DNA of 20,000 nt from an uncultured virus (IMG/VR IMGVR_UViG_3300044637_001924) (IMGVR_UViG_3300044637_001924); one strand, 5' to 3'. Counted from the stretch's first letter, positions 1-18,460 are shown. Numbers and translations: made by a program. The notes: a model not told the origin generated them from the letters alone.

Positions 1-161
1 TCCAGCACCATGTTGAAGTTTTCCAACTCCATTCCATAACTGTTGGGCGTGAATCTCAGCCCCTGCACCACTTGTGCGGCTCGTTGTGCATCCTGTGGAT
101 TTAAAAAATTGTCAGCATGGATCAATTTCACCATGCCTCTCACCATTGGTGTGCTAGTCAT
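1..161 (-). CDS. 5' part of a gene truncated by the window edge; possibly a 2OG-Fe(II) oxygenase-like/DUF6445-like protein
   Basis: Not in the ORF track. ATG at 161 overlaps the mrp stop region, and the frame is open to the edge: MTSTPMVRGMVKLIHADNFLNPQDAQRAAQVVQGLRFTPNSYGMELENFNMVL. 'LIHADNFLNP' resembles the N-terminal 'xxxDNFxxP' motif of phage 2OG-oxygenase-like proteins; the function call is weak. Confidence 0.55.
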   Translation of the reverse strand, partial: MTSTPMVRGMVKLIHADNFLNPQDAQRAAQVVQGLRFTPNSYGMELENFNMVL

Positions 162-2511: not shown

Positions 2512-2872
2512 GGTACTTTCGCAATTCCCAGGTGGTGTCTAAGTCTTTGGCCCATTTTGCCAAGTTTTGATAGCTGCTGAGAGGCACTTGCGGCCAAACT
2601 TCTGTCGCATGCAACCTTTGTGTTTTGTCTGCCATTCTTTCAACAGTGACCAAGAGCCCGCACTCACTGGGACGCATGCTGTCGTCCAACAGCCCTTGTA
2701 GCCAAAGGCATTGAAACCGAGTGCAGAATTCAGGTTTAGTGATGTAAATGGTGCAACCTGTGGTGTGCAAAAATCTGCAGGGGGTGCCGCGAGTTTGAAT
2801 GTTTCCATAGGCATTGCCATAGAGATGGCCTTCACAACAGGCAGTGCAACTCCCGCAACTTCTATTGGGCAT
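2495..2872 (-). CDS. YkgJ/CxxCxxCC family Fe-S- or Zn-chelating protein
   Basis: CGSCTACC...CRFL...GCTIY..KP.FC..FQC.WL cysteine pattern; overlaps both neighbours. Confidence 0.8.
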   Translation of the reverse strand: MPNRSCGSCTACCEGHLYGNAYGNIQTRGTPCRFLHTTGCTIYITKPEFCTRFQCLWLQGLLDDSMRPSECGLLVTVERMADKTQRLHATEVWPQVPLSSYQNLAKWAKDLDTTWELRKYHELQS

Positions 2873-3677
2873 AATTTTGCCACCACTGTTTCCAGTCTAA
2901 GAATGGATCCATTTGCGCATCAAATTGCATGTGCAGAGCCAAGCTGGGAATAGGATTGAATCTAATGGCTGGTCCGTTCCGCCAAATATTCCAGATAGTG
3001 TTGTCTTCTGTGTAGCGAAACTCATTTTCCTTGCCCTTGCGCAAATACATGCCGCTGTAGTTCAAACTCAAGGCCTCAAACAAACCCCAATTTTGTTCTA
3101 TCAAGCTTGGCACAGTCAACATCACAAAAGTTGTGTAGATGCCGCTTCTCCAGTGGCGAGCTGTGCCATGCACTAGCCAACAGGGTGGGGTAGGTGGATC
3201 ATAGCATTCAGGCGCGTCGAATGGATATAATACTATCTGATCATTGTTCAATTTTTGTTTGAAGAGGAAATAGCTGTCCACCATCTCTTGTAGAGAGGAT
3301 GGCGCATGTAAGTAGTCATCTTCCACACAATACACTAAGTCACTACTGCTGTTTTTGGCACGCAAAAACACCTCATGTCCTGAGTTTTGATAGCCTTGCG
3401 TTTCCAATTGAACCAGTTCAAAATTTGGTAAGAGAGATCCCTTTTCCTTAAGAAATTCCACTAACGCCGGGCTGCTGCTGTCGTCCAACACAGTGAGTTT
3501 TACGTGAAACCAAGTGCAGTGTAGGATGGCAGCCACAAGGCTGTTGAAACAGCCCTTTACCAAGTCAATTTTTTCCATGTCACAATAGCGCACCCGCCAA
3601 TCATTGTGTACATTGGCTCGATCACAAGTGCGCAAAATCACATGCAACTCAAGAGGATTGGTATTTTGAATACTCAT
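2862..3677 (-). CDS. GT-A fold (GT2-like) glycosyltransferase
   Basis: LTVLDDSSS and DLVYCVEDDYLH (DxD-type) motifs. Start revised to ATG 3677, just after the upstream TGA at 3680-3682. Confidence 0.75.
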   Translation of the reverse strand: MSIQNTNPLELHVILRTCDRANVHNDWRVRYCDMEKIDLVKGCFNSLVAAILHCTWFHVKLTVLDDSSSPALVEFLKEKGSLLPNFELVQLETQGYQNSGHEVFLRAKNSSSDLVYCVEDDYLHAPSSLQEMVDSYFLFKQKLNNDQIVLYPFDAPECYDPPTPPCWLVHGTARHWRSGIYTTFVMLTVPSLIEQNWGLFEALSLNYSGMYLRKGKENEFRYTEDNTIWNIWRNGPAIRFNPIPSLALHMQFDAQMDPFLDWKQWWQNYAQ

Positions 3678-3679
3678 GC

Positions 3680-4459
3680 TCAATATCTCCAAACTTCCAT
3701 ATTGGAGTATTGGCTTAAGATATCTGGAGGCAAAATAGTTTCTCTAGGCCGCCATTCTACTCTGCTGTGTATTTTATGTAATTGCATACCAATCTCTGCA
3801 TCATACTCGTCCCAACTGGCCTCTACCGCGTCAAAATCATGAGGGTAGTAGGGTTCTCCGATGAAATTATACACTGCCTGGAGCACGCCTTGGGGATTTC
3901 GACACAACTGTTCGTATTCGATCAACATCAACATATGTTTTTCTGCACTAGTAATAGCTTGTTTCACTCCAGTATAGGCAAATTCCACTATGCCATTCTT
4001 CTCCATCAACAAGTTCATCCGATCATACACACTGTCGCCAATCCCACCAAAAATGGTGTTTTTGTCAAAAGGGTGTCGTCGATGTGCAGTTTCAAAACTG
4101 TCCAAAACCCATTTGAGGTCACGCACACAAACCAACACTCGTGAGCTGGGATAAACCTCCTGGATTTGTGGCAAGAGTCGGGTCCAGGCTCGGTTGGTGT
4201 TCCAACAAATACTTTTGTCTACATCTTGGTAGTAGCCGTCAAACAATGCTCGCACAAGATTTTTTCTGCGACTCACTGGTACTTCTGTTCGCATACCAGG
4301 ACTGTCTACACTAGTTTCAATCACTCCTCGAACCATAGTGGCCAGTGGATCAGTAATGCTGGCATGCATCACTGGATTCTGCCGCAAAATGCTGCTTAGC
4401 AAGGTGCTTCCGCTCCGTGGTAGCCCGCTTATCATGTGATAGTGTTTTTCAGTTGTCAT
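3680..4459 (-). CDS. PAPS-dependent sulfotransferase (Sulfotransfer_3-like)
   Basis: 5'-PSB loop ISGLPRSGSTLLSSIL, 3'-PB VCVRDLKWVLDS, and IEYEQLCRNP..L..VYNFIG. Start revised to ATG 4459 (MTTEKHYH), which overlaps the upstream stop. Confidence 0.9.
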   Translation of the reverse strand: MTTEKHYHMISGLPRSGSTLLSSILRQNPVMHASITDPLATMVRGVIETSVDSPGMRTEVPVSRRKNLVRALFDGYYQDVDKSICWNTNRAWTRLLPQIQEVYPSSRVLVCVRDLKWVLDSFETAHRRHPFDKNTIFGGIGDSVYDRMNLLMEKNGIVEFAYTGVKQAITSAEKHMLMLIEYEQLCRNPQGVLQAVYNFIGEPYYPHDFDAVEASWDEYDAEIGMQLHKIHSRVEWRPRETILPPDILSQYSNMEVWRY

Positions 4460-5804
4460 TTTGTTGTTTTTCTCGTAGAGTTGTTTTAATAATTTCACCT
4501 GCTCTCTGCAATGGTGTAGACCAACACCCTGGAGTCTGTTGCTTCAGTACACGTAAGCTTTTTGAATACCATGGCGTGCTCTCGTCAGTATGTGTGCTGG
4601 TCCAAACATAATATTCCAAAATAGGCACACACACAATCCCAGGCACTCCCATACTGGCGGCTGCATGTATTATACTAGTACAACTGCTGAGCACAATATC
4701 CATTTGACTGAGATAGTCCAGTGTGTCGTCCCAGGAGTTGATCCTGGCTCGAAGATTATGGCATCTCTCGTGCGTGTGCTGTAGATCAAAATTGTAGATT
4801 TCAACATCCGAGGGTATCACACTCAGCATCTGCTCCAAAGGAATACAGCGATAAATGTCCTGCTCAAAATAAGGGTTGCCTTGACATTTTACCCCAACAC
4901 GTAGTTTTTTTGACGCAGGCAGTTTGGTATGAGGTTGGCCAGACGCTGTGAGATAAGGCCCTTTCCAAAGGTCTTGTTCGCCAACACCCAAATCAATAGG
5001 CAAGTTCATGAGATAAGTCCAGGGCTGATGAACATCAATCTCCTCCTCATTCACCAACACTTCAAATCCATGTCGGCGGAACACTTGGGCTAATCCAGGG
5101 CGGTCTAATATGCTGAAAAGTTTTGGTTGCATACCCAAGTTTTTGAGATGGTTGAAGAACCTGATGTTGATGAGCTCGTCACCAGCTCCTCCGCAGGCAT
5201 TCACATAGAGAGTTTGGCCTGGCACCTTCACTCCATTCCAAATTCTCATTCCTTTGATGTCAAAAACAGTTGTGCGATCTCTGTCCGTGTGTAGGAACCA
5301 CCGAATTCCTTCAGCAGTTTGTCCAGCTCGGAGCAGTGGATGAGTGTCAGTTATGCGCAGATTCTCGCACTGGTCAGCTGTGACCCAAGGCTGACACTTC
5401 AAATCATTTATTACTCTTTCGCTCTCGCCACGCTCACCATTTAACTTCAAACTGGCAGCATAACTCACTATAGCGTCAAAGTCATTTGGGCGCATTTCCA
5501 AATTTATCTTATTGTAAAATAATGCTTTTTCTGGCTGATTTGCACGATAATAGGCTTTGCCTAAGTTCACTCTTGCTACATAAGATTCTTCAGGTGTAGT
5601 GCACATACCTGCAACAGTTTCAGCACACTTGACAGCCAAGTCTGTATGACCAATCTTTAGGCTCACTGTGCCCAAAGTTTCCAGCTCTAGCAGTGTTTGC
5701 GCTCTGGGCCAATAATGGTCCAAGAGTTGAAATGCCAGTGGATGATTTTCCTGTTTGGCCAACTCCAGTGCTGTGGTTTTCACATGCTCAAATGTTGAGC
5801 TCAT
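4449..5804 (-). CDS. TPR-repeat plus GT9-like glycosyltransferase
   Basis: N-terminal TPR-like helices (VNLGKAYYRANQPEKALFYNKINLEMRPND). GT-B motifs GGAGDELINIRF, GNP...RCIPL and SWDDTLDYLSQMDIVLSSCTSIIHAAASMGVP. Confidence 0.8.
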   Translation of the reverse strand: MSSTFEHVKTTALELAKQENHPLAFQLLDHYWPRAQTLLELETLGTVSLKIGHTDLAVKCAETVAGMCTTPEESYVARVNLGKAYYRANQPEKALFYNKINLEMRPNDFDAIVSYAASLKLNGERGESERVINDLKCQPWVTADQCENLRITDTHPLLRAGQTAEGIRWFLHTDRDRTTVFDIKGMRIWNGVKVPGQTLYVNACGGAGDELINIRFFNHLKNLGMQPKLFSILDRPGLAQVFRRHGFEVLVNEEEIDVHQPWTYLMNLPIDLGVGEQDLWKGPYLTASGQPHTKLPASKKLRVGVKCQGNPYFEQDIYRCIPLEQMLSVIPSDVEIYNFDLQHTHERCHNLRARINSWDDTLDYLSQMDIVLSSCTSIIHAAASMGVPGIVCVPILEYYVWTSTHTDESTPWYSKSLRVLKQQTPGCWSTPLQRAGEIIKTTLREKQQNDN

Positions 5805-5807
5805 GGG

Positions 5808-6350
5808 TTACTTTACTACCACTAACTGAATGTAGACTTCGTCGATTATGTTACAGTGCTGTTCAAGATACTGCTCTACCTGTTCTTTAGGTTGCCCCAC
5901 AAATTGATCTTTGTATTTTTCCATGGGTCGCAAGCTGTAGTCCACCACCTCAAAATCCACATTGTAGCGTTCGGCAAGCCTACTGGCATGTGCACCTTGC
6001 TTGCGTGCCAATTGGTTGTATTTGCAGCCAAACAAGCGCAAGCCATCTACAGTGACTGGGCGTTTGTGCGTGGGGTCGCTGAAGAAGTCATCACTGCGGT
6101 GATGAGGTACATGAATATGTACTCTTGCCCCAGGTTTGCACACTCGATAAATTTCCTGCAGACAGTGAAAATACCCCTCGCCCAAGTGCTCTAACACATG
6201 AGTGGCTCTCAACACATCTACACTGTTGGTGGGAAATGGGAAAATGTCTTTTTCAAGGTCAAAACAAAAATCAGGATTGCAGTTGGGATCGTAGTCACAG
6301 TGCACATATCCATCAATCCTGTCTTCACCTGCGCCAATATAGATTTTCAT
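5808..6350 (-). CDS. Small class I SAM methyltransferase (Methyltransf_11-like)
   Basis: KIYIGAG, FPFPTNSVD, HVLEHL, EIYRVCKPGA and DPTH motifs; ATGA overlap with the upstream gene. Confidence 0.85.
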   Translation of the reverse strand: MKIYIGAGEDRIDGYVHCDYDPNCNPDFCFDLEKDIFPFPTNSVDVLRATHVLEHLGEGYFHCLQEIYRVCKPGARVHIHVPHHRSDDFFSDPTHKRPVTVDGLRLFGCKYNQLARKQGAHASRLAERYNVDFEVVDYSLRPMEKYKDQFVGQPKEQVEQYLEQHCNIIDEVYIQLVVVK

Positions 6351-7951
6351 TGTGATTTCTCCAAAAGCTGTCCATTCAACATCAGTGCGGCAACGCTGTC
6401 ATTGGTTTCAAAAAATCTCAAACTCTGTTCAGGAGTTTCCATAATGGGCTCTCCAGCGCCATTCAAGCTGGTGTTGCACAGCACAGGAACGCCTGTCAAT
6501 TGATGGTAACAAGTGAGCAGTTGGTGCAACTGGGGATTTTGTTCAGCTGTAACAGTTTGCGGGCGTGCACTGTTGTCCACATGACACACTGCTGGAATCA
6601 GTTGCGGCTTCAGCACTTGTGCAGTGTAAAGCATGTAGGGGCTCGAGGGTATTGGCAAGGAGAACCAATCGTGGGCGTGTTCCTGCAACACCACAGGCGC
6701 AATAGGTCGAAACCATTCTCTGTTTTTCACTGCGAAATTTATTTTCTCACGCATGTGATAGCTTTGTGCATCAGCCAAAAGACTTCTGTGGCCCAGTGCT
6801 CGAGGCCCATATTCGCTTCTGCCCCAGTGCCAGGCCACTATAGCTCCTTGAGCCAGTAGCTCACAAACTCTAGTGTAGTCCACAATGGAGGTAGTGTTTT
6901 GAGAAGGTCCCAAATAACATAAATTCTGCGGTTGATAATTTTGCCTTGGTAAGTCAAACAAATGGTGCGCTACCCAAAGAGCGGCGCCCACCGCATTGCC
7001 GTCATCGCCACATGCAGGAAAGTGATGAATGCCCTCCCAAAGCTTGCTTTCAGCTATCCGGCTGTTCAAGATGCAGTTCAGCATGCTGCCACCACTGAGG
7101 CATAACTGTCGTTGCGGATAAATTTGGTGCAGTGTAGCTAGTGTTTCCAGAACACTCTTCTCCAGTAGCTCTTGAATAGTAGCAGCCAAATCACTGCTTT
7201 CCTTGTGTGTGAGCTCATGTGGGTGCTTGGCAATGAGTTTTTCCCACACATTGCTCCAGAACTTCCTGTATTCCAACTCAGCGTGTTCTTGAACACTGAA
7301 CCATTGTTTTTTCAAAATCTCATCAAAAATAGGGCCAGTGAGTGATTTACCATAACTGCTGAGTCCCATGGTGGTGCCTGCCTTGCTGTAGGCTGGGGAG
7401 AAACCCAACAGCTCGGTGAAGATGGCATACCCAATACCTGAGATGAGTGTTGGGCACATTTGAGCTTGAAGCTTAGTGCCTTCACCAAAAAACACCATGT
7501 TGTTGTCGCCAAGTTCGCCAAAACTGCTGTCTAAGCTGAAACAAATGGCCTTATCAAAATTGCTAGTGTAGTAGGCACTGCTGGCATGCGCCAAATGATG
7601 TGGCAGCACATACACTGGTATTTTGTGGCTGCCGAGGAAAACACCTGTAAGCGTTCGCACGTCGTTGTTGTAGAGTGAGTAGGCAGTTCTCTCCACAGTG
7701 TTGCCATCACTGTCATATAGTGCCAAGACACCGTTGCTGTGGTTGGCCTTGTAGTCAGCCAATGCTATGCAACTGATGTCCTCAGGTTTAAGTGAAGCTT
7801 CCTGAAGTATAGCCTCAATTGTTTTGTTGGTTACACCAAAAGCCTTTTTTTCTCTAGTAACACGTTCTGTTCCCAAAGCTGCTGTTAATCTGCCATTTTT
7901 CACAACTGCCACAGCACCGTCGTGAGAAAAATTCATTCCCAATATGTTCAT
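6347..7951 (-). CDS. Carbamoyltransferase, NodU/CmcH/TobZ family
   Basis: SHDGAVAVVKNG, HHLAHASSAYY, LSGGSMLNCILN, PACGDDGNAVGAA, GRSEYGPRALGHRS, KNREWFRPIAP, HVDNSARPQTV and NTSLN..GEPI. Confidence 0.95.
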   Translation of the reverse strand: MNILGMNFSHDGAVAVVKNGRLTAALGTERVTREKKAFGVTNKTIEAILQEASLKPEDISCIALADYKANHSNGVLALYDSDGNTVERTAYSLYNNDVRTLTGVFLGSHKIPVYVLPHHLAHASSAYYTSNFDKAICFSLDSSFGELGDNNMVFFGEGTKLQAQMCPTLISGIGYAIFTELLGFSPAYSKAGTTMGLSSYGKSLTGPIFDEILKKQWFSVQEHAELEYRKFWSNVWEKLIAKHPHELTHKESSDLAATIQELLEKSVLETLATLHQIYPQRQLCLSGGSMLNCILNSRIAESKLWEGIHHFPACGDDGNAVGAALWVAHHLFDLPRQNYQPQNLCYLGPSQNTTSIVDYTRVCELLAQGAIVAWHWGRSEYGPRALGHRSLLADAQSYHMREKINFAVKNREWFRPIAPVVLQEHAHDWFSLPIPSSPYMLYTAQVLKPQLIPAVCHVDNSARPQTVTAEQNPQLHQLLTCYHQLTGVPVLCNTSLNGAGEPIMETPEQSLRFFETNDSVAALMLNGQLLEKSQ

Positions 7952-7954
7952 AAC

Positions 7955-8785
7955 TTAGTATAATAGCCATTTGTCCTGAGAAATCAAATAATCACGTAAA
8001 TGTAAATATCCCTTCATCATGGTGTGAAATTTCAATAATTGCCCTTGCATGGTGTTTTTGTTGTAGTCAATTTTTTCCAAATGTTCAAAGTAGAAGAGGC
8101 ATTCTTGTTCGCTGAGATACAAAGGTGCGTTGTACCAACCATGAAATCCCAATGCTGAGGTGTAACCAGTGAGCACTTCTGCACAGAATTTTAAGCTGAT
8201 ATGTGCTGGAGCGAATCGAATGTTGTAGGCAGTTTCAAGGTAATTCTGGTTGAGCAGTGTAATCACAGCATCCTCACTGATGAAGGGCGTGTTGTGATTG
8301 GGGGTGTAGTTCCGGGTTTTGATCTGGGGATCTTCAGCTAGGATTTTGAGGAGGCGACGGCTTCGCAAGCTTAATCCTCCGCCACAGGTGAACCAATCTG
8401 CGTTTTTAAATTCTTGGTAGTGGCCACTGGCTTGCAGGCTGCCTTTCATTGGCGGAAATTCAGGATGCGAGAGGCTGCCCACGTAATCATATTCAAAATA
8501 TTCATCAGTCCAGGCTTTGGGGTTTGTGGCTATGCCATCATAGTGTGCTATCAACACAAAATCAGTGTTGATGTAGCTGTGCATGCTCTTGAGGCAGAAA
8601 TCACAGTATTCCAGCATGCCAAAGTTTTCTGGAATTGGATATTGTGTATGGGGTTGTGCAAGAGTTAATGGTTGATCTGACACCACAATTGTGGTGGTGA
8701 TCGGTGTAGAGGCAAGGGTTTTTTGAAGTGAGAAACTAGTGAGTTCGTGCTGGATGTTTGTGATGGTGAATAGAGTAAGGGTCAT
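7955..8785 (-). CDS. DUF5672-like putative glycosyltransferase
   Basis: YINTDFVLIAHYDG, WTDEYFEYDYVG, GGGLSLRSRRLL, EDAVI, RFAP and GFHG match the DUF5672 pattern. Confidence 0.75.
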   Translation of the reverse strand: MTLTLFTITNIQHELTSFSLQKTLASTPITTTIVVSDQPLTLAQPHTQYPIPENFGMLEYCDFCLKSMHSYINTDFVLIAHYDGIATNPKAWTDEYFEYDYVGSLSHPEFPPMKGSLQASGHYQEFKNADWFTCGGGLSLRSRRLLKILAEDPQIKTRNYTPNHNTPFISEDAVITLLNQNYLETAYNIRFAPAHISLKFCAEVLTGYTSALGFHGWYNAPLYLSEQECLFYFEHLEKIDYNKNTMQGQLLKFHTMMKGYLHLRDYLISQDKWLLY

Positions 8786-8817: not shown

Positions 8818-10167
8818 CTAGTTATAGCACTGGAGAATTGCAGCCGTCATGGAACCGGCCGAAGTTTGACACCACGCGGTGCTGCTGCTTATTTCTCTCA
8901 CCGGACTTGAGCGATTGGTAACAGTGTTATCTCCTAACACACCGCAATCGTTAAATCCCCAAGTCCAAAGTGTGCCATCTGTCTTTATTGCAGTGTTGTG
9001 ATTACTACCAGCTGAAGTTTGACACCAAGTGGTGGAATTGGTGATTTCTCTCCCTGGACTTGATAGTAGACCTGTGTTGTTGATTCCTAACTGCCCACAC
9101 TGGTTAAATCCCCAACTCCAAAGTGTGCCATCTGTTTTTATTGCACTAGTCCAGGCGCTTGCCGAAGTTTGACACCAAGTGGTGCTGCTGCTTATTTCTC
9201 TCACCGGACTTGAGCGATTGGTAACAGTGTTATCTCCCAACTGCCCACACCTATTACACCCCCAACTCCAAAGTGTGCCATCTGTCTTTACTGCACTGAT
9301 GGTAATACCTTTACCAGCTGATGTTTGACGCCAAGTGGTGGAACTGGTGATTTCCCTTACAGGACTTGAGCGATTGGTAACAGTGGTGTCTCCTAACATA
9401 CCGCAATAGTTATTTCCCCAACTCCAAAGTGTACCATCTGTTTTTAATGCACTGGTGTGAAAACTACCACTTGATGTTTGACACCAAGTGGTTGAACTGG
9501 TGATTTCTCTCACTGGACTTGAGCGACTTGTAACAGTGTTATCTCCCAATCTGCCACACCCGTTATATCCCCAAGTCCAAAGTGTACCATCTGTTTTTAA
9601 TGCACTGTTGTGAGAATTACCAGCTGAAGTTTGACACCAAGTAGTTGAACTGGTGATTTCCCTTACAGGACTTGAGCGACTTGTAACAGTGTTGACTCCC
9701 AACTGACCCTGGACATTGTATCCCCAAGTCCACAGTGTGCTATCTGTTTTTATTGCACTAGTGAAGGCGCTGCCTGCCGAAGTTTGACACCAAGTGACAG
9801 AACTGGTGATTTCTCTCACTGGACTTGAGCGACTTGTAACAGTGTTGTCTCCTAACGGACCGCATATATTACGACCCCAAGTCCACATCTGTCTAAGAGG
9901 CCAATCTCGACGTAAAACCCTACCATCCAATCCCACCCATGAAGTACAAGTGGATATTACAGGTACACAAATACTTTTGACAAAAACTGTTTGACCAAAA
10001 CCTATGCACTTTGTAGCTAGGTCAGGTAAGTCTGATACTGTGTTAACAACAAAACTAATGCCAACTCCAGCAGCACTGGTTTGGGCTGCTAACAAAGGAA
10101 AACAAACACTGTCGCAAGCAGTTATTAATGAGTCAATACTAGTTTGGATTTCAGAGGGTGTTGGCAT
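8818..10167 (-). CDS. RCC1/BLIP-II-like 7-bladed beta-propeller protein, N-terminal class C (copy C2); putative virion adhesin
   Basis: Seven W(S/T)WGxNxxGxLGDNTVTxRSSPVREITSSTTWCQTSAGxxxTSAIKTDGTL repeats; GGAG SD upstream of ATG 10167. Confidence 0.9.
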   Translation of the reverse strand: MPTPSEIQTSIDSLITACDSVCFPLLAAQTSAAGVGISFVVNTVSDLPDLATKCIGFGQTVFVKSICVPVISTCTSWVGLDGRVLRRDWPLRQMWTWGRNICGPLGDNTVTSRSSPVREITSSVTWCQTSAGSAFTSAIKTDSTLWTWGYNVQGQLGVNTVTSRSSPVREITSSTTWCQTSAGNSHNSALKTDGTLWTWGYNGCGRLGDNTVTSRSSPVREITSSTTWCQTSSGSFHTSALKTDGTLWSWGNNYCGMLGDTTVTNRSSPVREITSSTTWRQTSAGKGITISAVKTDGTLWSWGCNRCGQLGDNTVTNRSSPVREISSSTTWCQTSASAWTSAIKTDGTLWSWGFNQCGQLGINNTGLLSSPGREITNSTTWCQTSAGSNHNTAIKTDGTLWTWGFNDCGVLGDNTVTNRSSPVREISSSTAWCQTSAGSMTAAILQCYN

Positions 10168-10180
10168 GTTCTGTCTCCAT

Positions 10181-11521
10181 TTACTTCAAGGCACTGGTGT
10201 GAAAACCACCAGCTGATGTTTGACGCCAAGTGGTGGAACTGGTGATTTCCCTTACAGGACTTGAGCGATTGGTAACAGTGGTGTCTCCCAACTGACCAGA
10301 GCCATTGCCGCCCCAAGTCCAAAGTGTGCCATATATTTTTAATGCACTGGTATGTATCCACCCGACAGAAGTTTGACACCAAGTGGTGGAACTGGTGATT
10401 TCCCTTACAGGACTTGAGCGATTGGTAACAGTGGTGTCTCCCAACTGACCAGAGCCATTGTATCCCCAAGTCCACAGGGAGCCATCTGTTTTTATTGCAG
10501 CGGTATGGATACCAGCTGAAGTTCGACACCAATTGGTGCTGTTGGTAATTTCTATGTTTGGATTTGAACTATTAGTGATGGTGTTGTTTCCCAGCTGGCC
10601 CGACCCGTTTTCTCCCCAAGTCCAAAGTGTGCCATTTGTTTTTATTGCAGCAGTATTCGTAGGGCCTGCTGAAGTTTGACACCAAGTGGTTGAACTGCTA
10701 CTTTCTCTCACTGGACTTGACTTAGCCGTAACAGTGTTGTCTCCCAACTGACCCCAACCGTTCCAGCCCCAAGTCCAAAGTGTGCCATCTGTTTTTAATG
10801 CACTGGTATGGCTGCCGCTGTTAAACCCGCCTGACGAAGTTTGACACCAAGTAGTTGAGCTGGTGATTTCTCTCACTGGGCTTGAGCGACTAGTGACAGT
10901 GTTGTTTCCCAGCGTACCACAGGATGCATTTCCCCAACTCCAAAGTGTGCTATCTGTTTTCAATGCGCTTGTGTGGGCATTACCAGCTGAAGTTTGACAC
11001 CAAGTGGTTGAGCTTGTGATTTCCCTTACAGGACTTGAGCGACTTGTAACAGTGTTATCTCCCAACTGACCAGAGACATTGTAGCCCCAAGTCCACAGTG
11101 TGCTATCTGTTTTTATTGCACTAGTCCTACCACCGTTGGCAGCGGCGGCTGAAGTTTGACACCAAGTGGTGGAACTGGTGATTTCTCTCACTGGACTTGA
11201 GCGACTAGTGACAGTGTTGTCTCCTAACCGACCACACCCGTTAAAGCCCCAACTCCAAATTTGGTTTAGGGGAGTAGTACCTATAACACCCCATCCCGTA
11301 ACTGTGGCCACATACAGTGAGGTATTCAACACAACATAATACAATTCACCCACATTTGCGGCGGCTGTTGGTAAATCAGTCACTGCGTTCACCACATACA
11401 CCTTGCCGCTTCTCAACTGCTGCAATACCTTGCTGTAGTAAAACAAATCCTGCTCATTAGTAGTGCTGGATATTTTTTGCTGCATTGTGAACACTAGATT
11501 AGCTACATTGATGGTAGACAT
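10181..11521 (-). CDS. RCC1-like 7-bladed beta-propeller protein, N-terminal class B (copy B2)
   Basis: Seven repeats. ATG at 11521 overlaps the TGA of the upstream gene; the track start at 11524 is a TTG. Confidence 0.9.
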   Translation of the reverse strand: MSTINVANLVFTMQQKISSTTNEQDLFYYSKVLQQLRSGKVYVVNAVTDLPTAAANVGELYYVVLNTSLYVATVTGWGVIGTTPLNQIWSWGFNGCGRLGDNTVTSRSSPVREITSSTTWCQTSAAAANGGRTSAIKTDSTLWTWGYNVSGQLGDNTVTSRSSPVREITSSTTWCQTSAGNAHTSALKTDSTLWSWGNASCGTLGNNTVTSRSSPVREITSSTTWCQTSSGGFNSGSHTSALKTDGTLWTWGWNGWGQLGDNTVTAKSSPVRESSSSTTWCQTSAGPTNTAAIKTNGTLWTWGENGSGQLGNNTITNSSNPNIEITNSTNWCRTSAGIHTAAIKTDGSLWTWGYNGSGQLGDTTVTNRSSPVREITSSTTWCQTSVGWIHTSALKIYGTLWTWGGNGSGQLGDTTVTNRSSPVREITSSTTWRQTSAGGFHTSALK

Positions 11522-12882
11522 CAAAGGAATCCTTTGCAGGTTAGGATTTTTAAGGCACTAATATGGGCAGATGCCGAAGTTTGAAACCAAGTAGTAAAAC
11601 TGCTGATTTCTCTTACTGGACTTGAGCGACCAGTTGTTGTGTTGTCTCCCAACTGACCATACTGGTTCCGGCCCCAATTCCAAAGTGAACCATCGGTTTT
11701 CAATGCACTGACTGTCTGATTTCTGGAAGTTGAGGTTCGACACCAATTATTGCTGCTGGTGATTTCTCGCCCTGGTACTCCAGTACATGCGGTGGTGTTG
11801 TTTCCCAACACACCACAACTGCCGTACCCCCAGGTCCAAAGTGTGCCATCTGTTTTTACTGCGGTGCCGGCATTGGAACCTGAGGCAGTTTGACACCAAG
11901 AAGTACTAGAGAGGGCTTCTCTCACTGGACTTGATCTATTGGTTGAGGTTCCGTCTCCCAATGTACCGCAGAAATTGCGTCCCCAAACCCACAATGTGGA
12001 GTCTGTTTTCACTGCACTGGATACTTGACTTCCAGGGGAAGTTTGGCACCAATTGGTGGAACTGGTGATTTCTCTCACTGGACTTGACCGCGTATTGGTG
12101 GAGTTGTCTCCTAACTGACCCCAAATACCACATCCCCAAGTCCATAGTGAACCATCTGTTTTAACTGCACTAGCTATGCTCGCACCAAAGGCAATTTGGC
12201 ACCAATTGCTGCTGCTGCTGATTTCTCTTACCGGACTTGAGCGACTTGTTGTTGTGTTATCGCCCAACTGCCCACAGAGATTGAGTCCCCACACCCAAAG
12301 TGTGCCATCAGTTTTTATTGCACTAGTGGGACTATTACTACCAGCCGCAGTTTGGCACCAATTACTGCTGCTGCTGATTTCTCTTACGGGACTTGAGCGA
12401 CTTGTTGTTGTGTTGTCTCCTAACGAACCACCCGTGTTATAGCCCCAACTCCAAAGCGAGCCATCTGTTTTTATTGCACTGGTGTGACCACCACCAGCCG
12501 AAGTTTGACACCAATTGCCGCTGTTGCTGATTTCTCTCACCGGACTTGACCGACAAGTAACAGTGTTGTCTCCCAACTGACCAAACCCATTGGCTCCCCA
12601 AGAAAAAACGCTGGGTTCAACACGCTGCACGATGCTTCGAAAGTCTGTTGTCCAACAAATGCCATCACTGACGCGATACTGGCAAGTGTCTTGTAGATAC
12701 ACCATCCTTCCTTGATTCAAGGTCGCAGTGGGCAAAGCAGCGAGATTGGAAAAAGAAACCACTGCTTGAGTGTCGAGAATACATTGTGCACCCTGCAACT
12801 GACAACAGCTTAATGGAGTAAGCCCACCTGCTGCCAAACGTGAAGTAATTTGTGTTTGTAGTGTTTTTGCTGATGTGGTCAT
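11521..12882 (-). CDS. RCC1-like 7-bladed beta-propeller protein, N-terminal class A (copy A2)
   Basis: Seven repeats. Start revised to ATG 12882 (MTTSAKTL), 1 nt after the upstream TAA. Confidence 0.9.
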   Translation of the reverse strand: MTTSAKTLQTQITSRLAAGGLTPLSCCQLQGAQCILDTQAVVSFSNLAALPTATLNQGRMVYLQDTCQYRVSDGICWTTDFRSIVQRVEPSVFSWGANGFGQLGDNTVTCRSSPVREISNSGNWCQTSAGGGHTSAIKTDGSLWSWGYNTGGSLGDNTTTSRSSPVREISSSSNWCQTAAGSNSPTSAIKTDGTLWVWGLNLCGQLGDNTTTSRSSPVREISSSSNWCQIAFGASIASAVKTDGSLWTWGCGIWGQLGDNSTNTRSSPVREITSSTNWCQTSPGSQVSSAVKTDSTLWVWGRNFCGTLGDGTSTNRSSPVREALSSTSWCQTASGSNAGTAVKTDGTLWTWGYGSCGVLGNNTTACTGVPGREITSSNNWCRTSTSRNQTVSALKTDGSLWNWGRNQYGQLGDNTTTGRSSPVREISSFTTWFQTSASAHISALKILTCKGFL

Positions 12883-12883
12883 G

Positions 12884-14257
12884 TTATTGCGGAACAACTA
12901 ATATAGTTTTAATAGCACTAGTATCCACTTTACCAGCCGAAGTTTGACACCAAGTGGTGCTGCTGGTGATTTCTCTCACTGGACTTGATCGATTGGTAAT
13001 AGTGTTGTCTCCCAACTGACCACACAAATTGCCTCCCCAAGTCCAAAGTGTACCATCTGTTTTTAATGCACTGTTATTGACACAACCAGCCGAAGTTTGA
13101 CACCAAGTGGTGCTGCTGGTGATTTCTCTCACTGGACTTGAGCGACCAGTTGTTGTGTTGTCTCCCAACTGACCACACCCGTTAGAGCCCCAACTCCAAA
13201 GAGCGCCATCTGTTTTTATTGCAGACGCGTGCCGATATCCAACTGATGTTTGACACCAAGTAGTGCTGCTGCTGGCTTCTCTCACTGGACTTGACCGGTT
13301 TGTTGTTGTGTTGTCTCCCAACTGCAAACCTCCTCCCCAACTCCAAAGTGTGCCGTCTTTTTTTATAGCACTAGTGCTTATACCACCAGCTGAAGTTTGA
13401 CACCAAGTGGTGCTGCTGGTGATTTCTCTTACAGGACTTGACTTACTTGTAGCAGTGTTGTCTCCCAATCGACCATAGCCGCCGGAGCCCCAACTCCAAA
13501 GTGTGCCATCTGTTTTTACTGCACTGGCAGTATAATTACTGGATGCTGTTTGACACCAAGTGGTGCTGCTGGTGATTTCTCTTACTGGGCTTGAGCGATT
13601 GGTAATAGTGTTGTCTCCCAACTGACCAGAGGCATTGCTGCCCCAACTCCAAAGTGAACCATCTGTTTTTATTGCATGTGTACTTCTGTTATCAGACGTA
13701 GTTTGACACCAAGTGGTGCTGCTGGTGATTTCTCTTACAGGACTTGACTTACTTGTAGCAGTGTTGTCTCCCAATCGACCGTAGTTGCCTCTGCCCCAAC
13801 TCCAAAGTGTGCCATCTGTTTTTAATGCACTGGTATGATAAAAGCCAGCTGAAGTTTGACACCAAGTGGTGCTGCTGGTGATTTCTCTTACTGGGCTTGA
13901 GCGATTGGTAATAGTGTTGTCTCCCAATCGACCGTTGTTGTTGCCGCCCCAACTCCAAAGAGCTCCTCCCACTGTAGGAGTGAAATTCCTGCCATCAAAA
14001 CCAATCCAACAGCCATTGAGGCTCACTACGGGCACAAGTGCATCGCACAAAAAAACAACATGCCCATTTGGTAACCCAGTTGAACAACTGCAACCAAATA
14101 AGGTATCTATGCTGATGAAACTACTCCGATTACTGTCAACAGCGTCTTGTGATGCTGCTGCTAACACCACATCCATACTGCATGTGAGTGTGCCACTTGA
14201 GCATATTTCGCTCACCACAGAGTTGAGAAGTGTTGCACAGCAGAGGTTATTGGCCAT
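12884..14257 (-). CDS. RCC1-like 7-bladed beta-propeller protein, N-terminal class C (copy C1)
   Basis: Seven repeats; AAGGA SD upstream; Cys-rich N-terminus. Confidence 0.9.
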   Translation of the reverse strand: MANNLCCATLLNSVVSEICSSGTLTCSMDVVLAAASQDAVDSNRSSFISIDTLFGCSCSTGLPNGHVVFLCDALVPVVSLNGCWIGFDGRNFTPTVGGALWSWGGNNNGRLGDNTITNRSSPVREITSSTTWCQTSAGFYHTSALKTDGTLWSWGRGNYGRLGDNTATSKSSPVREITSSTTWCQTTSDNRSTHAIKTDGSLWSWGSNASGQLGDNTITNRSSPVREITSSTTWCQTASSNYTASAVKTDGTLWSWGSGGYGRLGDNTATSKSSPVREITSSTTWCQTSAGGISTSAIKKDGTLWSWGGGLQLGDNTTTNRSSPVREASSSTTWCQTSVGYRHASAIKTDGALWSWGSNGCGQLGDNTTTGRSSPVREITSSTTWCQTSAGCVNNSALKTDGTLWTWGGNLCGQLGDNTITNRSSPVREITSSTTWCQTSAGKVDTSAIKTILVVPQ

Positions 14258-14268
14258 CTTGCGCTTCC

Positions 14269-14919
14269 TTAACCACCACTCACTAGATTGGGCACGTTGC
14301 CTACCACTAACACTTCCAACTCCTCTATAGTGGTTGAGGCAGTGATTTCATCATCTTTGAGTTTTTCCCAGTCAAATGTGGCTTGAATATGCGCTGCACC
14401 AGCAGCGACGCATTGGCCTAATTCATCTTTTGTGAGAGTGAGCCAAGTTTCCGGAAACTTCCAATTCACTGTTTCATCAGTTGCCATAAGAGAGTATTTT
14501 TGCACAAAAATGTTCCTACCTTCTCTGCTAGTGTCAATAGTAACTTTTTTACCTTGTATCACAGTGTGTGTGCCACCCACTTCAGCAGTGTAGCGATTGG
14601 CTTGTGCCTCGTCTCGCAACTGAGCTTGTATCTCCCAAATTTGCTTGTATTTGATCTCAAATGTACCAACGGCAATTGCAGGATTAGTGAAATCCCAGAA
14701 CGGACCATAATAGGTTTGTGTTCGAGAGTTATGATCGGGTATCACCAGCTGTGCTGTGGTCAAATAGGTGGCATCGTCTATCACAATAGGAACGGTTTCA
14801 GGGTCATTGCGCGGCAGCAATGCTGAAATCTTAAGGCGGTCCAGACCGCCTTCAAACATTGGCCTATTCCAACTCATTGGACCTACCAACACTCTTTCGT
14901 TATGTACTAACACATACAT
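14269..14919 (-). CDS. DUF4376-domain phage tail-fibre-associated protein
   Basis: C-terminal RYTAEVGG...IDTSREGR...VNWK...WLTLTKDEL...HIQATFDWE...ITASTTIEEL is typical of DUF4376; AAGGA SD. Confidence 0.75.
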   Translation of the reverse strand: MYVLVHNERVLVGPMSWNRPMFEGGLDRLKISALLPRNDPETVPIVIDDATYLTTAQLVIPDHNSRTQTYYGPFWDFTNPAIAVGTFEIKYKQIWEIQAQLRDEAQANRYTAEVGGTHTVIQGKKVTIDTSREGRNIFVQKYSLMATDETVNWKFPETWLTLTKDELGQCVAAGAAHIQATFDWEKLKDDEITASTTIEELEVLVVGNVPNLVSGG

Positions 14920-14936
14920 ATTTTATTCCTTTTATC

Positions 14937-16256
14937 TTAAATTGTTTGCCGGGCTACAGTAAACAGGCCCTGTCCTATGCTAACTTCACTCCAGGAGCTT
15001 GAACTGGATATTTCACGTATAGGCAATAAACTTCTGATTGTAGAGTTGTTACCAAGTTGGCCACAATTGTTATTACCCCACATCCATAAAGTGCTTGCGG
15101 TTGTTAAAGCGCCACTTCTGCCAAAGCCGGCAGTGACTTGGCACCAATTGGTTGCACTTGTTGCTTCCTGAATTGGTGAGCTCCTGGATACAGTAGAGTT
15201 GTCTCCTAAAGCACCACAAGCGTTGCAACCCCATGCCCATAGTGTGTTAGTTGTTTTTAAGGCAATAGAGTGAGCAAACCCAGCGGAAGTTTGACACCAA
15301 GTGGTGGAGCTACTTATCTCTTGAACGGGACTTGATACATTGCTAGTGCTATTATTGCCAAATTTGCCACACTCGTTTGACCCCCATCCCCATAAAGTAC
15401 CACTTGTTTTGAGTGCTAGGGTACCGTAGAGGCCGGCAGAAACTTGACACCAATTGGTTGAACTGGAAATTTCTCGCACAGGACTAGACCTATTAGACAG
15501 ATTGCATGTGCCCAGTTGCCCAGTCCCATTATTTCCCCAACCCCAAAGGGTTCCATCTGTTTTTAGTGCAGCAGTATGCGAATATCCAGGTGAGGTTTGG
15601 CACCAAGTGGCACTGCTGCTGATTTCACGCACTGGGCTAGATTTGTTAACTATAGTGTTATCACCCACTTGGCCATATGTGTTCTTTCCCCATGCCCACA
15701 AACTGCCATCACTTTTAACACCAGACATTGTGTAAAAAGACGTACCTATTTGACACCAAGTTGTGCTGCTGGTGATTTCTCTTACAGGACTTGACTTACT
15801 GGTAACAGTGTTGTCTCCCAACTGACCACATACGTTATTGCCCCAAAGCCATAAGGAACTATCCTGTTTTAACCCCATTGAATTTACCGAACCAGCTCTG
15901 AGTTGCAGCCAGTTGCAGGAGCTTGTAATCTCTCTGACAGGACTTGATTGATTGGTTGTATTACTTGTGCCCAATTGTCCACAACTGTTTGACCCCCACG
16001 CCCAACCTGTGTTAGACTGTGATACAATAGGAATCCAAAATACAGAATTACTGAAAACTACTCTTTGAGCGTCTTCAACCAAATACAATTTACCATTGCT
16101 GGCTGATGCAGTAGGTAATAATTGAGAACAGGCTACAACAAACATAGCGCCTGTTCTCAGTTGTTGAATAGCCCGTGTATATGTGAGCAAATCTAGATTG
16201 TCGTTGCCTGCTGCGATTTTTTGGCTAAGGGCAAATTCAATTTGATTTAAGTTCAT
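14937..16256 (-). CDS. RCC1-like 7-bladed beta-propeller protein, N-terminal class B (copy B1)
   Basis: Seven more-diverged repeats; ATGA overlap with the upstream gene. Confidence 0.9.
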   Translation of the reverse strand: MNLNQIEFALSQKIAAGNDNLDLLTYTRAIQQLRTGAMFVVACSQLLPTASASNGKLYLVEDAQRVVFSNSVFWIPIVSQSNTGWAWGSNSCGQLGTSNTTNQSSPVREITSSCNWLQLRAGSVNSMGLKQDSSLWLWGNNVCGQLGDNTVTSKSSPVREITSSTTWCQIGTSFYTMSGVKSDGSLWAWGKNTYGQVGDNTIVNKSSPVREISSSATWCQTSPGYSHTAALKTDGTLWGWGNNGTGQLGTCNLSNRSSPVREISSSTNWCQVSAGLYGTLALKTSGTLWGWGSNECGKFGNNSTSNVSSPVQEISSSTTWCQTSAGFAHSIALKTTNTLWAWGCNACGALGDNSTVSRSSPIQEATSATNWCQVTAGFGRSGALTTASTLWMWGNNNCGQLGNNSTIRSLLPIREISSSSSWSEVSIGQGLFTVARQTI

Positions 16257-17602
16257 AGTGCTACAAATCCTGAAATTTTACCTTGAATGGCCATTGTTTG
16301 CCTTGTACTGCTAGTTACACAACTCCACGACGTGGCTGATGTTATCTCTCTCACAGGACTGGAAACTGATGTAACTGTGTTGTTCCCCAACGCGCCACAT
16401 GATGCATTTCCCCAGGTCCACAATGTGCCATCTGTTTTTAACGCCGCGGTATGCGCGCATCCACCAGATACTTGACACCAAGTTGTTGATGATGAAATTT
16501 CTTGTATAGGACTGCTCCGGCTGGTTGCAGTATTATTTCCCAGCTCTCCACATGTATTTAAACCCCATGCCCACAGAGTGCCATCGGTTTTTATAGCATT
16601 TGAATGATACTTGCCAGGCCCAAATGTGCACCAATTTGTAGAGCTGGAAACTTCTCGAACTGGGCTGCTGGCATTTGAGGTAGAGTTGTTACCGAGAACG
16701 CCATATCCACCTGAGCCCCAGCTCCAAAGTGTATTGTCTTTTTTCAACGCAACTGCTAGGTTGTAACCGTTTTGTATTCTGCACCAGGAGGTTCCGCTTG
16801 TTATTTCTCGCACTGGTGAACTGAAGTTAGTTGTGTTGTTGGTTCCCAGTACTCCACATGTGTTGACTCCCCAGGTCCACAGACTGCCATCAGACTTGAC
16901 AGCAGCAGAGTGTCGCAGCCCTCCACTGCTGATTGAACACCAATTTGTACTTGATGATACCTCGCGGATTGGAGAACTGCGGGTTGTTTTGGTGCCATCG
17001 CCCAAATTACCGCAAAAGTTGTCGCCCCATGCCCACAGTGTGCTATCACATTTTAAAGCCAAAAGATGGAACGCAAATGACCCTACACTTGTCCAGGTTG
17101 AAGAACTACTTATTTCACGAACTGGACTACTTTGGTTAGCTGTTGCATTATTGCCCAGTGCACCACAATTGTTGTAACCCCAAGTCCATAGTGAAAGGTC
17201 TGATTTTATTCCTGCTGATGTTGTATTGCTAGTGACAGTAACCCAATTGCAGCTTGAGCTTATTTCTCGAACAGGTGAACTCTGGGAAGTTGTTGTATTA
17301 TTGCCCAAACCTCCACAGAGGTTCCAACCCCACCCAAACACACATGCGCCTGTCCAATTTGTATTGAAGTCATTGGTCCATTGGGTGCCATCACTGTAGC
17401 GATAGTCGCCAATGTCCGTTATCCAAATAAACCTGCCTGTATTGTCACATGCTGTTGGCAATGCTGCACAATTTGCTACACAATAGATCCCATTCAAAGC
17501 CGCTTGAATACCTGCCAACTGAGCAGTTTGCAGAACATCTTGATTGGCCAAGACAATGCATGCGTTGGCTTGTGTGATGAGTTTGCCAGCAGCCACAGAC
17601 AT
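16253..17602 (-). CDS. RCC1-like 7-bladed beta-propeller protein, N-terminal class A (copy A1)
   Basis: Seven more-diverged repeats; starts 4 nt after the upstream stop. Confidence 0.9.
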   Translation of the reverse strand: MSVAAGKLITQANACIVLANQDVLQTAQLAGIQAALNGIYCVANCAALPTACDNTGRFIWITDIGDYRYSDGTQWTNDFNTNWTGACVFGWGWNLCGGLGNNTTTSQSSPVREISSSCNWVTVTSNTTSAGIKSDLSLWTWGYNNCGALGNNATANQSSPVREISSSSTWTSVGSFAFHLLALKCDSTLWAWGDNFCGNLGDGTKTTRSSPIREVSSSTNWCSISSGGLRHSAAVKSDGSLWTWGVNTCGVLGTNNTTNFSSPVREITSGTSWCRIQNGYNLAVALKKDNTLWSWGSGGYGVLGNNSTSNASSPVREVSSSTNWCTFGPGKYHSNAIKTDGTLWAWGLNTCGELGNNTATSRSSPIQEISSSTTWCQVSGGCAHTAALKTDGTLWTWGNASCGALGNNTVTSVSSPVREITSATSWSCVTSSTRQTMAIQGKISGFVAL

Positions 17603-17606
17603 GTGA

Positions 17607-17864
17607 TTAAGTCAGTGCCAACAAAGCTAGTGTTCGAGCAGTGTTGTCTTGGCCACCAAAACTGCCCCAAACTGTGCCGTCGTAGCCTTCAAAACTGGCT
17701 TGCGTAGTATTGTAACGGATTTGTCCTGTTGCTGCTGTTGGTCTTTCACCATCTGTGCCCACAGGCAATTTTAGTGCAGATGTGCCGCTGAAATTGGCAT
17801 ACCCAGTAATAGTCAAATTTTGGTTATCGGCGATGACTGTAACGCCTGATATTTTTATGGCCAT
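17607..17864 (-). CDS. 85-aa mini fibre/structural protein
   Basis: LKLPVGTDGERPTAATGQIRYNTTQASFEGYDGTVW matches the LPxGTxxxRP..G.IRYN...FEGY.G..W module common in T4-like phage fibre/virion proteins. Strong AAGGAG SD at 17872-17877. Confidence 0.8.
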   Translation of the reverse strand: MAIKISGVTVIADNQNLTITGYANFSGTSALKLPVGTDGERPTAATGQIRYNTTQASFEGYDGTVWGSFGGQDNTARTLALLALT

Positions 17865-17897: not shown

Positions 17898-17905
17898 TAT
17901 TTATA
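17898..17905 (-). promoter_or_regulatory. T4-type late promoter TATAAATA (gp55-like sigma)
   Basis: + strand tatttata at 17898-17905 reads TATAAATA on the minus strand. It is intergenic, about 33 nt upstream of ATG 17864. Confidence 0.75.
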
Positions 17906-17923: not shown

Positions 17924-18460
17924 TTAACTTTGATTTAGTCCCAAGTGTTTTTTCAATACTTCAATACTTTCGGCCTGCTCTTGCAATGCCTTCAACAACA
18001 GCGGTATCAACTGAATATATGCCACAGTTTTCCCTGACGCGGTTGTACTCACAAGAGATGGTATAACTTGCTCTACTTCTTGAGCCAATAAACCAAAACT
18101 GTGTTTGCTGGCATGCTTCCAGTCAAAACTAACGGGATTGAGTTCCTTGAGAATAGCCCAACTGTCGGTAATTGTTGAGATGTTTGTTTTGAACGCAGCA
18201 TCACTGATGCTGTTGAAGTCAACAGCAGCCACTTCACCAGTGCCAGGATTATAGGTGAATGCTGTTGCAGTGCTGCGTATCCTAGGAGTAGTGCTAGAGC
18301 CAGCAGTGTCCACAAAAACCGGATAAAATGTTGAATTTGTTGTGGTATTTGTAGCAGTAATTGAGGTTGAGCTGCCGGCTGTTCCGCTCCATCCACTAGT
18401 GCCAGAAAATCCACTTGTGCCCGCACCGCTAAATCCGCTCCATCCACTTGTTCCGCTCCA
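17924..18460 (-). pseudogene. Tail-fibre C-terminal remnant: Gly-X-Ser repeats plus a peptidase S74 intramolecular chaperone domain
   Basis: The frame is open upstream of the track's GTG 18313: WSGTSGWSGFSGAGTSGFSGTSGWSGTAGSSTSITATNTTTNSTFYPVFVDT. It continues into SDAAFKTNI...LNPVSFDWK...GLLAQEVEQVIPSLV...YIQLIPLLLKALQEQ (S74). No proper start or SD is visible. Confidence 0.75.

Follow-up and report, generated by a model that had tools for sequence, protein, structure and literature searches.

Why would a virus carry six closely spaced genes for RCC1 propeller proteins whose N termini come in three kinds, and what might their products build together? This question is raised by a 20,000-nt stretch of DNA from an uncultured virus (IMGVR_UViG_3300044637_001924), hereafter the window, which corresponds to bases 58342-78341 of a 180,697-bp IMG/VR viral record with a CheckV completeness of 44%. 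All sizeable genes of the window are on the minus strand, including six open reading frames (ORFs) of 439-457 aa, between positions 8818 and 17602, each encoding an N-terminal domain of ~90 aa followed by a seven-blade RCC1 propeller. A first-pass annotation had assigned their N termini to three classes (A, B, and C) and had given the order of transcription as A1, B1, a DUF4376 gene (here D), C1, A2, B2, C2; the six ORFs indeed lie where it had placed them, the N-terminal peptides that it quoted are found in the translations, and the order is correct. Together with D and an 85-aa protein encoded directly upstream (p85), the six proteins very likely constitute a late-expressed receptor-binding module, at the tip of a virion fiber or attached to the fiber, in which, as we tentatively propose, one chain of each class would join in a heterotrimer.

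All six proteins score between 196.5 and 294.8 bits against the Pfam RCC1-like domain (PF25390), for which the cut-off is 150, and each contains five to seven RCC1 repeat stretches (PF00415). The best PHROG for five of the six is phrog_4219, and no RCC1 genes other than these array members occur in the 180,697-bp record. For A1, the propeller protein whose structure we predicted, the AlphaFold2 (AF2) model reveals a seven-blade propeller with a predicted local distance difference test (pLDDT) score of ~80-92, which is matched by Foldseek to UVR8 (4dnw_A; E 7.3e-36, template modeling [TM] score 0.87) and to the RCC1-like domain of HERC1 (TM 0.90), with that of HERC2 also near.

The N termini were compared with each other by scoring local alignments of ~90 aa against 200 shuffles. 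The A1/A2 and B1/B2 pairs score 130 and 119, respectively, both with a z of 22, C1/C2 scores 64 with a z of 6.1, and none of the 12 cross-class pairs exceeds a z of 6.5. By these alignments, the pairing of C1 with C2 is weak inside the window alone, and it is clear once relatives are added. In a tree of 61 N-terminal domains from 13 lineages, the three classes are recovered as had been anticipated, class A as a clade with support of 100/97, class C with 100/99, and class B, weakly, with 89/53. Each of the six window genes forms a pair with the gene at the same position in a related contig, L030, with 99-100% support (100/99 for C1), and the within-class paralogues, whose N termini are 26-39% identical, are consequently old; a recent tandem duplication of a three-gene unit, which we considered, is rejected on the same grounds. 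When the class profiles are aligned over their full length with hhalign, they match one another with E values of 2.9e-26 (A-B), 1.6e-19 (B-C), and 6.3e-16 (A-C), which are inflated because the aligned region extends into the beginning of blade 1. Classes A, B, and C are, by these profile comparisons, homologous along the entire N-terminal domain. A word-index search with residues 1-90 of A1 returned four matches only, all of them close RCC1 relatives.

Class A is further distinguished by its C terminus. The tail that follows the last blade reads ..KGF, plus or minus 1-3 residues (16253-16290 in A1 and 11521-11550 in A2), and a GF tail is present in 19 of the 23 full-length class A proteins but in 0 of 26 class B and 0 of 24 class C proteins. 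The earlier remark that both class A proteins of the window end in GF is thus approximate, A1 ending in SGFVAL and A2 in KGFL, and the GF tail stands as a trait of the class. This KGF tail may be a docking peptide.

What kind of domain is this N terminus? We searched a class A profile against 1.84 billion representative proteins, which gave 266 matches at E <= 1e-3, and rescanned the best 150 of these locally. Among these 150, 91 have a single N-terminal copy, 55 of them together with RCC1 blade motifs, seven have a single internal copy, and 49 have two or more copies, spaced at a median of 86 aa, in proteins 199-4408 aa long and devoid of RCC1 motifs. The repeat outline is a helix followed by ..IKPVEIVSALPSTGN.EGR.VYLTTDDKLYRYTGSAW.., and the class A profile shows the corresponding unit of ~80-90 aa, that is, a helix and then ..LPxxG..GR.V.L..D.KLYRY.G..W. 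Judged by these matches, the A, B, or C N terminus is a single unit of an ~86-aa fiber-shaft repeat, from which fiber-like proteins as long as 4408 aa are built. No Pfam family scores above its cut-off in eight multicopy repeat proteins, and no credible match came from searching PDB sequences with the class A profile, p85, or a long shaft-repeat protein. A shaft-repeat model made from 11 units of four long proteins, and biased toward class A because these proteins were found with class A, detects 26 of 28 class A, 13 of 26 class B, and 0 of 30 class C N termini at E < 1e-3, which suggests that class A is the least changed from the repeat and class C the most.

How these genes are arranged in related phages can be seen from diverged contigs, which we gathered by a search with the class A N terminus and an alignment search with D, every RCC1 ORF being classified with profiles built from the class N termini. 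The array of the window itself is also found on seven IMG/VR contigs, the longest of 328,603 bp, which bring no extra diversity since they are 100% identical to it, six of them over 13,745 nt and L018 over its 5,700 covered nt. Class A, B, or C genes are present on 29 of the 51 metagenome contigs retrieved with the DUF4376 protein and on several IMG/VR contigs. There are 12 complete nonidentical arrays, eight with six genes (2A:2B:2C) and four with three (1A:1B:1C), and unequal class counts occur in none of them; the number of independent lineages is less than 12 since L032/L048, L033/L035, and L051/L060 are close kin. The genes follow one of three orders: A-B-D-C-A-B-C in the window and L030, A-B-B-D-C-A-C in six arrays (L023, L033, L035, L051, L053, and L060), and A-B-D-C in four (L032, L048, L064, and L070). 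The ABCABC order, which the first-pass annotation had expected relatives to conserve, is therefore just one of three, and six of the eight six-gene arrays depart from it; what holds in 12 of 12 is the equality of class numbers. A further 16 partial arrays are consistent with one of the three orders. A fiber-type upstream gene and D accompany the arrays, and their setting is a tail-fiber module. One partial array (..B-D-C-A-C), near that of L023, is found on L100, a 6.3-kb contig binned in a Terrimicrobiaceae metagenome-assembled genome (Verrucomicrobia), and this binning is either an artifact or a hint at the host.

The N-terminal tree also bears on how six genes arose. The last C genes of both six-gene orders, including C2, form one clade (95/87) and the first A genes group weakly (84/62), and the B genes cluster by gene order (92/85, 97/94, and 93/80), a hint that B duplicated separately; in one approximately unbiased (AU) test, however, orthology of the B genes across the two six-gene orders was not rejected (p 0.33). 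The propellers tell another story than the N termini. In the window, C1, A2, B2, and C2 have propellers that are mutually 61-72% identical, and those of A1 and B1 are 50-58% identical to all others. On a tree of 51 propeller domains, in which changes of class and genome label were counted and compared with 200 shuffles, class labels change 29 times (shuffled mean 24.6), i.e., without any class signal, but genome labels change only 17 times (shuffled mean 37.8), and no shuffle gave a count as low. A pairing of propellers by class is hence rejected, since the tree clusters by genome. As this tree indicates, propellers are homogenized inside each genome (concerted evolution), but the N-terminal classes are held apart, which we read as selection for three noninterchangeable anchors. 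Within the window itself, one cluster (Shimodaira-Hasegawa-like approximate likelihood ratio test [SH-aLRT] 98) unites the C1, A2, B2, and C2 propellers, but the A1 and B1 propellers each group with the orthologue from L030; gene conversion has thus swept four of the six propellers and spared the first two. At the DNA level, C1 is self-similar (12900-13960) at an offset of 306 nt, which is two blades, with ~82% identity over ~725 nt, and C2 and B2 are 77% identical over ~1040 nt; both similarities are consistent with unequal exchange between blades.

Upstream of the array, p85 has its stop codon 4 nt before A1, and gaps or overlaps between genes are at most 17 nt from p85 to C2. p85 matches 19 PHROGs, mostly the N termini of proteins without assigned function, the best being phrog_6005, "virion structural protein" (1.8e-15). 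Its C-terminal motif, [AT][RK]T[LIF][AS]x[LI][AG][LY], has a single occurrence when the 180-kb record is translated in six frames. In each of the 13 ABC lineages for which upstream sequence is available, the first A gene has upstream of it a gene for a protein with (D/E)xxARTLAxLAL, and in 11 of these 13 ARTLAxLAL is the very C terminus, the gene ending 0-35 nt before A or overlapping it. The sizes of these upstream proteins span 83-1000 aa, with collagen-like and long fiber-like forms among them. In L057 (5222-5707) and L053 (423-908), the p85-like protein continues for 76 aa past ARTLATLAL, an extension that in L057 matches no Pfam family, and the L053 gene is 4.8 kb upstream of the array rather than adjacent to it. 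A motif that we take to be of the T4 late-promoter consensus type, TATAAATA, precedes p85; it is the sole match in the window (expected 0.28) and is not significant alone, 52 of 200 shuffles having at least one match. NATAAATA lies 30-47 nt before the equivalent gene in 7 of 12 loci, and a leader, ..CCGAGTACTC..AGGAGC.., is common to several of those loci.

The DUF4376 protein D is a candidate fiber-assembly chaperone by virtue of its family. It scores 45.3 bits against PF14301 (cut-off 25), over residues 96-200 of 216, so that the domain occupies the C-terminal half of a ~200-aa protein, and it matches phrog_10508, "tail fiber protein," at 8.2e-13. The AF2 model of D has a pLDDT of 94.5, and its structural matches in BFVD are DUF4376 proteins, including that of Synechococcus phage S-SRM01. 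In the PDB, nothing matches the fold at E <= 0.001, and prefoldin beta (E 0.041) and helical chains (Z <= 8.5) were rejected as too weak. In PMC7289586 and PMC10579305, gp27 of the Alteromonas myovirus V22, which belongs to DUF4376, is presented as a tail-fiber chaperone of a new type and as essential for active fibers. The V22 gp26/gp27 pair, with phage A5 as a further case, resembles the window in that a DUF4376 protein of ~200 aa is encoded inside a host-recognition module beside receptor-binding genes, with the domain at a similar position (residues 92-184 of 195 in V22). The V22 chaperone gene differs in that it follows one fiber gene with knob domains, whereas D lies between B and C genes of a propeller array.

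RCC1 arrays of other designs are found further afield. In distant arrays, whose D proteins are 29-40% identical, three RCC1 genes have three types of short N-terminal peptide in the order X-D-Y-Z, assigned by eye; such arrays are seen in L075, L077, and L084, in L080 with one gene split, and partially in L072, L073, and L090. The nearest cultured phage is S-SRM01 (Kyanoviridae), with a propeller 43.6% identical. As in the window, S-SRM01 has RCC1 (gp335), DUF4376 (gp336), and RCC1 (gp337 and gp344) genes, which begin right behind a "long tail fiber distal subunit" gene, and tetratricopeptide repeat (TPR), sulfotransferase, and glycosyltransferase genes follow. It differs in that the N termini are 30-45 aa long, none belonging to class A, B, or C, and in that the third RCC1 gene is six genes further. 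The best score of the T4 gp23 family in the 44%-complete record of the window phage is 18.6 bits, under the cut-off, and psbA is absent from the same 180,697 bp. Elsewhere, L076 (86-5264) encodes three RCC1 proteins that start with MAIKINGTEVVDD, resembling p85, and then have an extra domain of ~120 aa. The likeness between p85 and the L076 N terminus covers the first 17 residues only, nine of which are identical (pairwise E 0.002), a hint that these proteins share an anchor. In L062 (1579-5892) and L089, at least four RCC1 proteins have a common fiber-like N terminus (..LPVANGGSGQTSYTDGQILIGN..). With arrays such as those of L076 and L062/L089, in which a single N terminus is used throughout, the anchors of propellers are evidently exchangeable modules.

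RCC1 proteins have been detected in virions. Three consecutive RCC1 proteins of E. coli phage W70 (W70_237-239, phrog_4219) were found in virions by tandem mass spectrometry with electrospray ionization (ESI-MS/MS), according to Table 2 of PMC11370258, and GAP_001, an RCC1 protein of the Rak2-like jumbo phage GAP32, was found by mass spectrometry, multiple copies being present in 121Q, according to PMC5259590. The W70 and GAP32 proteins are like those of the window, that is, RCC1 propeller proteins of ~40 kDa belonging to phrog_4219. The W70 proteins share one short N-terminal motif (MLEMxNLG), unlike the three classes of the window. For a heterotrimer, the precedent is virophage DSLV2, in which three consecutive gp37-like fiber paralogues copurify as a 1:1:1 heterotrimer, the three-gene set being conserved, related to fiber genes of Synechococcus phages, and able as a heterotrimer to bind Synechococcus lipopolysaccharide, as reported in PMC12724248. 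The window, too, has an adjacent set of paralogous genes, A, B, and C being homologous and equal in number in 12 of 12 complete arrays. The DSLV2 chains, however, are short needle-like homologues of the gp37 tip without a propeller, whereas each predicted chain of the window has a ~90-aa shaft unit and a propeller.

A similar outline is reportedly found in Gp45 of Staphylococcus phage phi11, which is said to have an N-terminal helical trimerization stem and one propeller per chain serving as a binding platform. Unlike the tip that we propose here, Gp45 is reportedly a homotrimer, and its propeller is five-bladed and accompanied by a tower domain.

How might these parts fit together? In our proposal, the tightly packed genes from p85 to C2 would form one late operon for the distal, host-binding end of a tail fiber. 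p85, or a longer fiber protein in relatives, would supply a stalk ending in ARTLAxLAL. Each of the six proteins combines a shaft-repeat unit (two short helices and an LPxA...G...Y.S.G..W beta part) with an RCC1 propeller, which would be the binding head, and the N-terminal unit has split into the three paralogous classes, which would not be interchangeable. Coassembly of one chain per class via these units would then give a pseudo-threefold heterotrimer docked on the stalk, D acting as the assembly chaperone, and the two triads encoded in the window would give two different tips. For the design of a heterotrimer from three paralogues, complement C1q provides a loose analogy. That the array is a fiber-tip receptor-binding module is the part in which we have high confidence, because of the shaft-repeat N termini, the ARTLAxLAL neighbor, the late-promoter-like motif, DUF4376, and the RCC1 proteins in W70 and GAP32 virions. 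The ABC heterotrimer is put forward with more reserve, as a possibility. It is favored because the unit to which the anchors are paralogous is built from parallel chains in fibers, because the classes always come in equal numbers, because the N-terminal classes resist the homogenization sweeping the adjoining propellers, and because class C no longer resembles the ancestral self-assembling unit. Taken as a whole, with the heterotrimer included, the proposal is accordingly a tentative one. So is its strictest form, an obligate A/B/C tip in which former homotrimeric shaft units with distinct propellers would plug onto the ARTLAxLAL end of an exchangeable stalk with the help of the DUF4376 protein, and gene conversion would keep the propellers alike; six-gene phages would have two alternative triads and, on this same obligate-partner reading, two tip specificities. 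A free 2x2x2 mix of chains, which the first-pass annotation had entertained, finds no support; the two sets differ by 61-74% per class in their N termini, which could equally enforce set-specific pairing.

Several observations weigh against this proposal. In the A1 model, confidence is low over the first ~85 residues (pLDDT 44-65), where two short helices precede short strands. Two partial contigs break with the usual pattern, L047 with a class A gene after D and L068 with D-C-C, its upstream part missing, which could mean unequal class numbers in that array; equal numbers, in turn, could in part be inherited from one segmental duplication instead of being due to selection. In W70, the RCC1 genes lie among small genes away from the fiber module, without DUF4376, and the authors proposed, in PMC11370258, a DNA-packing role for the proteins. 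The passages of PMC8557907 (S-SRM01) that we consulted mention neither RCC1 nor proteomics. The shaft repeat sits in single long chains, expected from the analogy of phage fibers to be homotrimers, and class A still matches the repeat well, so that A3 homotrimers are credible. An alternative with three kinds of homotrimer (A3, B3, and C3) follows, in which the N-terminal class would set where each docks, either at three sockets on the fiber or baseplate or in a series stalk-A-B-C, yielding six separate binders; the branched tailspike sets of CBA120-like phages and the gp34-37 chain of T4 are models for such arrangements. It is the default for a domain that is the unit of repeat of single long chains, it agrees with the canonical repeat consensus that class A keeps, and the GF tail, conserved in class A alone (19 of 23), could be a socket for the next part. 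It can also draw on relatives that use one kind of N terminus across their RCC1 proteins, namely L076 (three proteins), L062/L089 (at least four), and W70 (three, starting with MLEMxNLG). Yet independent binders would be expected to come and go singly, and class numbers are equal in 12 of 12 complete arrays; moreover, given the distance of class C from the shaft repeat (0 of 30 at E < 1e-3), self-trimerization in the ancestral mode is doubtful for it. We regard homotrimers as somewhat unlikely.

Alternatively, the stalk (p85 or its longer relatives) could be the sole trimer, and monomeric A, B, and C proteins would bind its end, or each other, as an asymmetric cap. RCC1 propellers are closed monomeric folds, the 30- to 45-aa N termini of the X-D-Y-Z arrays are mutually unrelated and look like three docking peptides rather than an oligomerization domain, and the ARTLAxLAL end is conserved on an otherwise variable stalk. 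We nonetheless consider this improbable, since a symmetric trimeric stalk has three identical sites, leaving the need for three classes unexplained, and since the ABC N termini are homologous to the shaft repeat. If the proteins instead had a role outside the virion, in the infected cell or on it, such as being partners or substrates of the nearby-encoded enzymes that transfer sugar, sulfate, methyl, and carbamoyl groups, the adjacency to fiber genes would be incidental. The conserved set of modifying enzymes after the array could be read this way, PHROGs files these RCC1 families under DNA metabolism, and the RCC1 proteins detected in virions so far are those of relatives (W70 and GAP32). Such a role is nevertheless very improbable for an array that is tightly coupled to a fiber/adaptor gene behind a late-promoter-like motif, that contains a gene of a fiber-chaperone family, whose N termini derive from a fiber-shaft repeat, and whose PHROG is shared by the proteins detected in W70 virions.

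The first-pass annotation knew of no description of this arrangement, and our literature searches bear it out: they produced no account of class-structured anchors on RCC1 propellers, of a stalk that ends in ARTLAxLAL, or of a DUF4376 protein working for an array of this kind, the related precedents being the heterotrimeric fiber of DSLV2 and the RCC1 triad of W70 virions. In PMC12906663, "RCC1" denotes strain numbers of a culture collection, and heterotrimers are not mentioned in the text of the Jabs preprint that we consulted. Already known are phage receptor-binding modules with a chaperone, as a general kind, and a heterotrimeric fiber has its precedent. What is different here is the design of a widespread aquatic phage module that has a conserved stalk end, three anchor classes equal in number, a putative chaperone, and propeller heads homogenized by genome. 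Receptor-binding proteins of phages are almost without exception taken to be homotrimers, and phage RCC1 genes are still labeled "regulator of chromosome condensation" and filed under DNA metabolism. If the classes coassemble, a single fiber tip would bear three different binding surfaces, which would alter host-range prediction from genomes of this kind and provide a modular scaffold for use in retargeting. The ARTLAxLAL peptide, the class-specific N termini, and the DUF4376 protein are parts of the finding that can be put to the test.

The features of the array are listed below in the order of transcription. For A2, the start is the ATG at 12882, and a TTG at 12897 is an alternative.

Table 1. 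Features of the propeller array and its upstream region (positions in the window; values after PF25390, PF14301, and class hidden Markov models [HMMs] are E values)
Feature	Description	Positions	Strand	Evidence or remark
Late-promoter-like motif	TATAAATA	17898..17905	-	33 nt before p85 start codon
p85	85-aa fiber/adaptor protein, C terminus ...DNTARTLALLALT	17607..17864	-	PHROG matches, conserved C-terminal motif
A1	Class A N terminus (residues ~1-88), propeller, ..SGFVAL tail	16253..17602	-	PF25390 3.2e-80; class A HMM 1.2e-36
B1	Class B N terminus, propeller; 4-nt overlap with A1 end	14937..16256	-	PF25390 1.4e-87; class B HMM 1.6e-34
D	216-aa DUF4376 protein, candidate fiber chaperone	14269..14919	-	Pfam PF14301 1.3e-11
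C1	Class C N terminus (Cys-rich, long branch), propeller	12884..14257	-	PF25390 1.1e-57; class C HMM 7.6e-34
A2	Class A N terminus, propeller, ..KGFL tail	11521..12882	-	PF25390 1.1e-58; class A HMM 2.3e-39
B2	Class B N terminus, propeller	10181..11521	-	PF25390 4.7e-67; class B HMM 4.3e-33
C2	Class C N terminus, propeller	8818..10167	-	PF25390 4.1e-62; class C HMM 2.8e-37

On the upstream side, a 129-aa ORF (17924-18313) carries a Peptidase_S74 chaperone domain (PF13884), the only S74 match in the window. A full S74 self-cleaving fiber is not found in the window, and an intact form of 683 aa is encoded in L030. The first 134 aa of this L030 fiber match the start of a 670-aa collagen-like fiber of the window phage (55%), and its last 173 aa match window positions 17930-18457 (74%). 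In the window phage, where the region concerned reaches into genome 76.8-82.4 kb (18458-24089 in window coordinates), the two fiber parts are separated by ~4 kb, which encode Gly-rich proteins of 291 and 343 aa, a 222-aa tail-fiber-assembly-like protein, and a 90-aa glycosyltransferase fragment. The region with the S74 ORF (17924-18457, minus strand) thus looks like the outcome of a fiber-tip swap that left the old C terminus stranded.

On the downstream side, positions 1-8785 of the minus strand encode a DUF5672 protein, a carbamoyltransferase, two methyltransferases, a 451-aa TPR protein, a sulfotransferase, a GT2 protein, and a ParA/NUBPL-type ATPase. A methyltransferase, a TPR protein, and a sulfotransferase also follow the array in L023, L032, L033, and L035.

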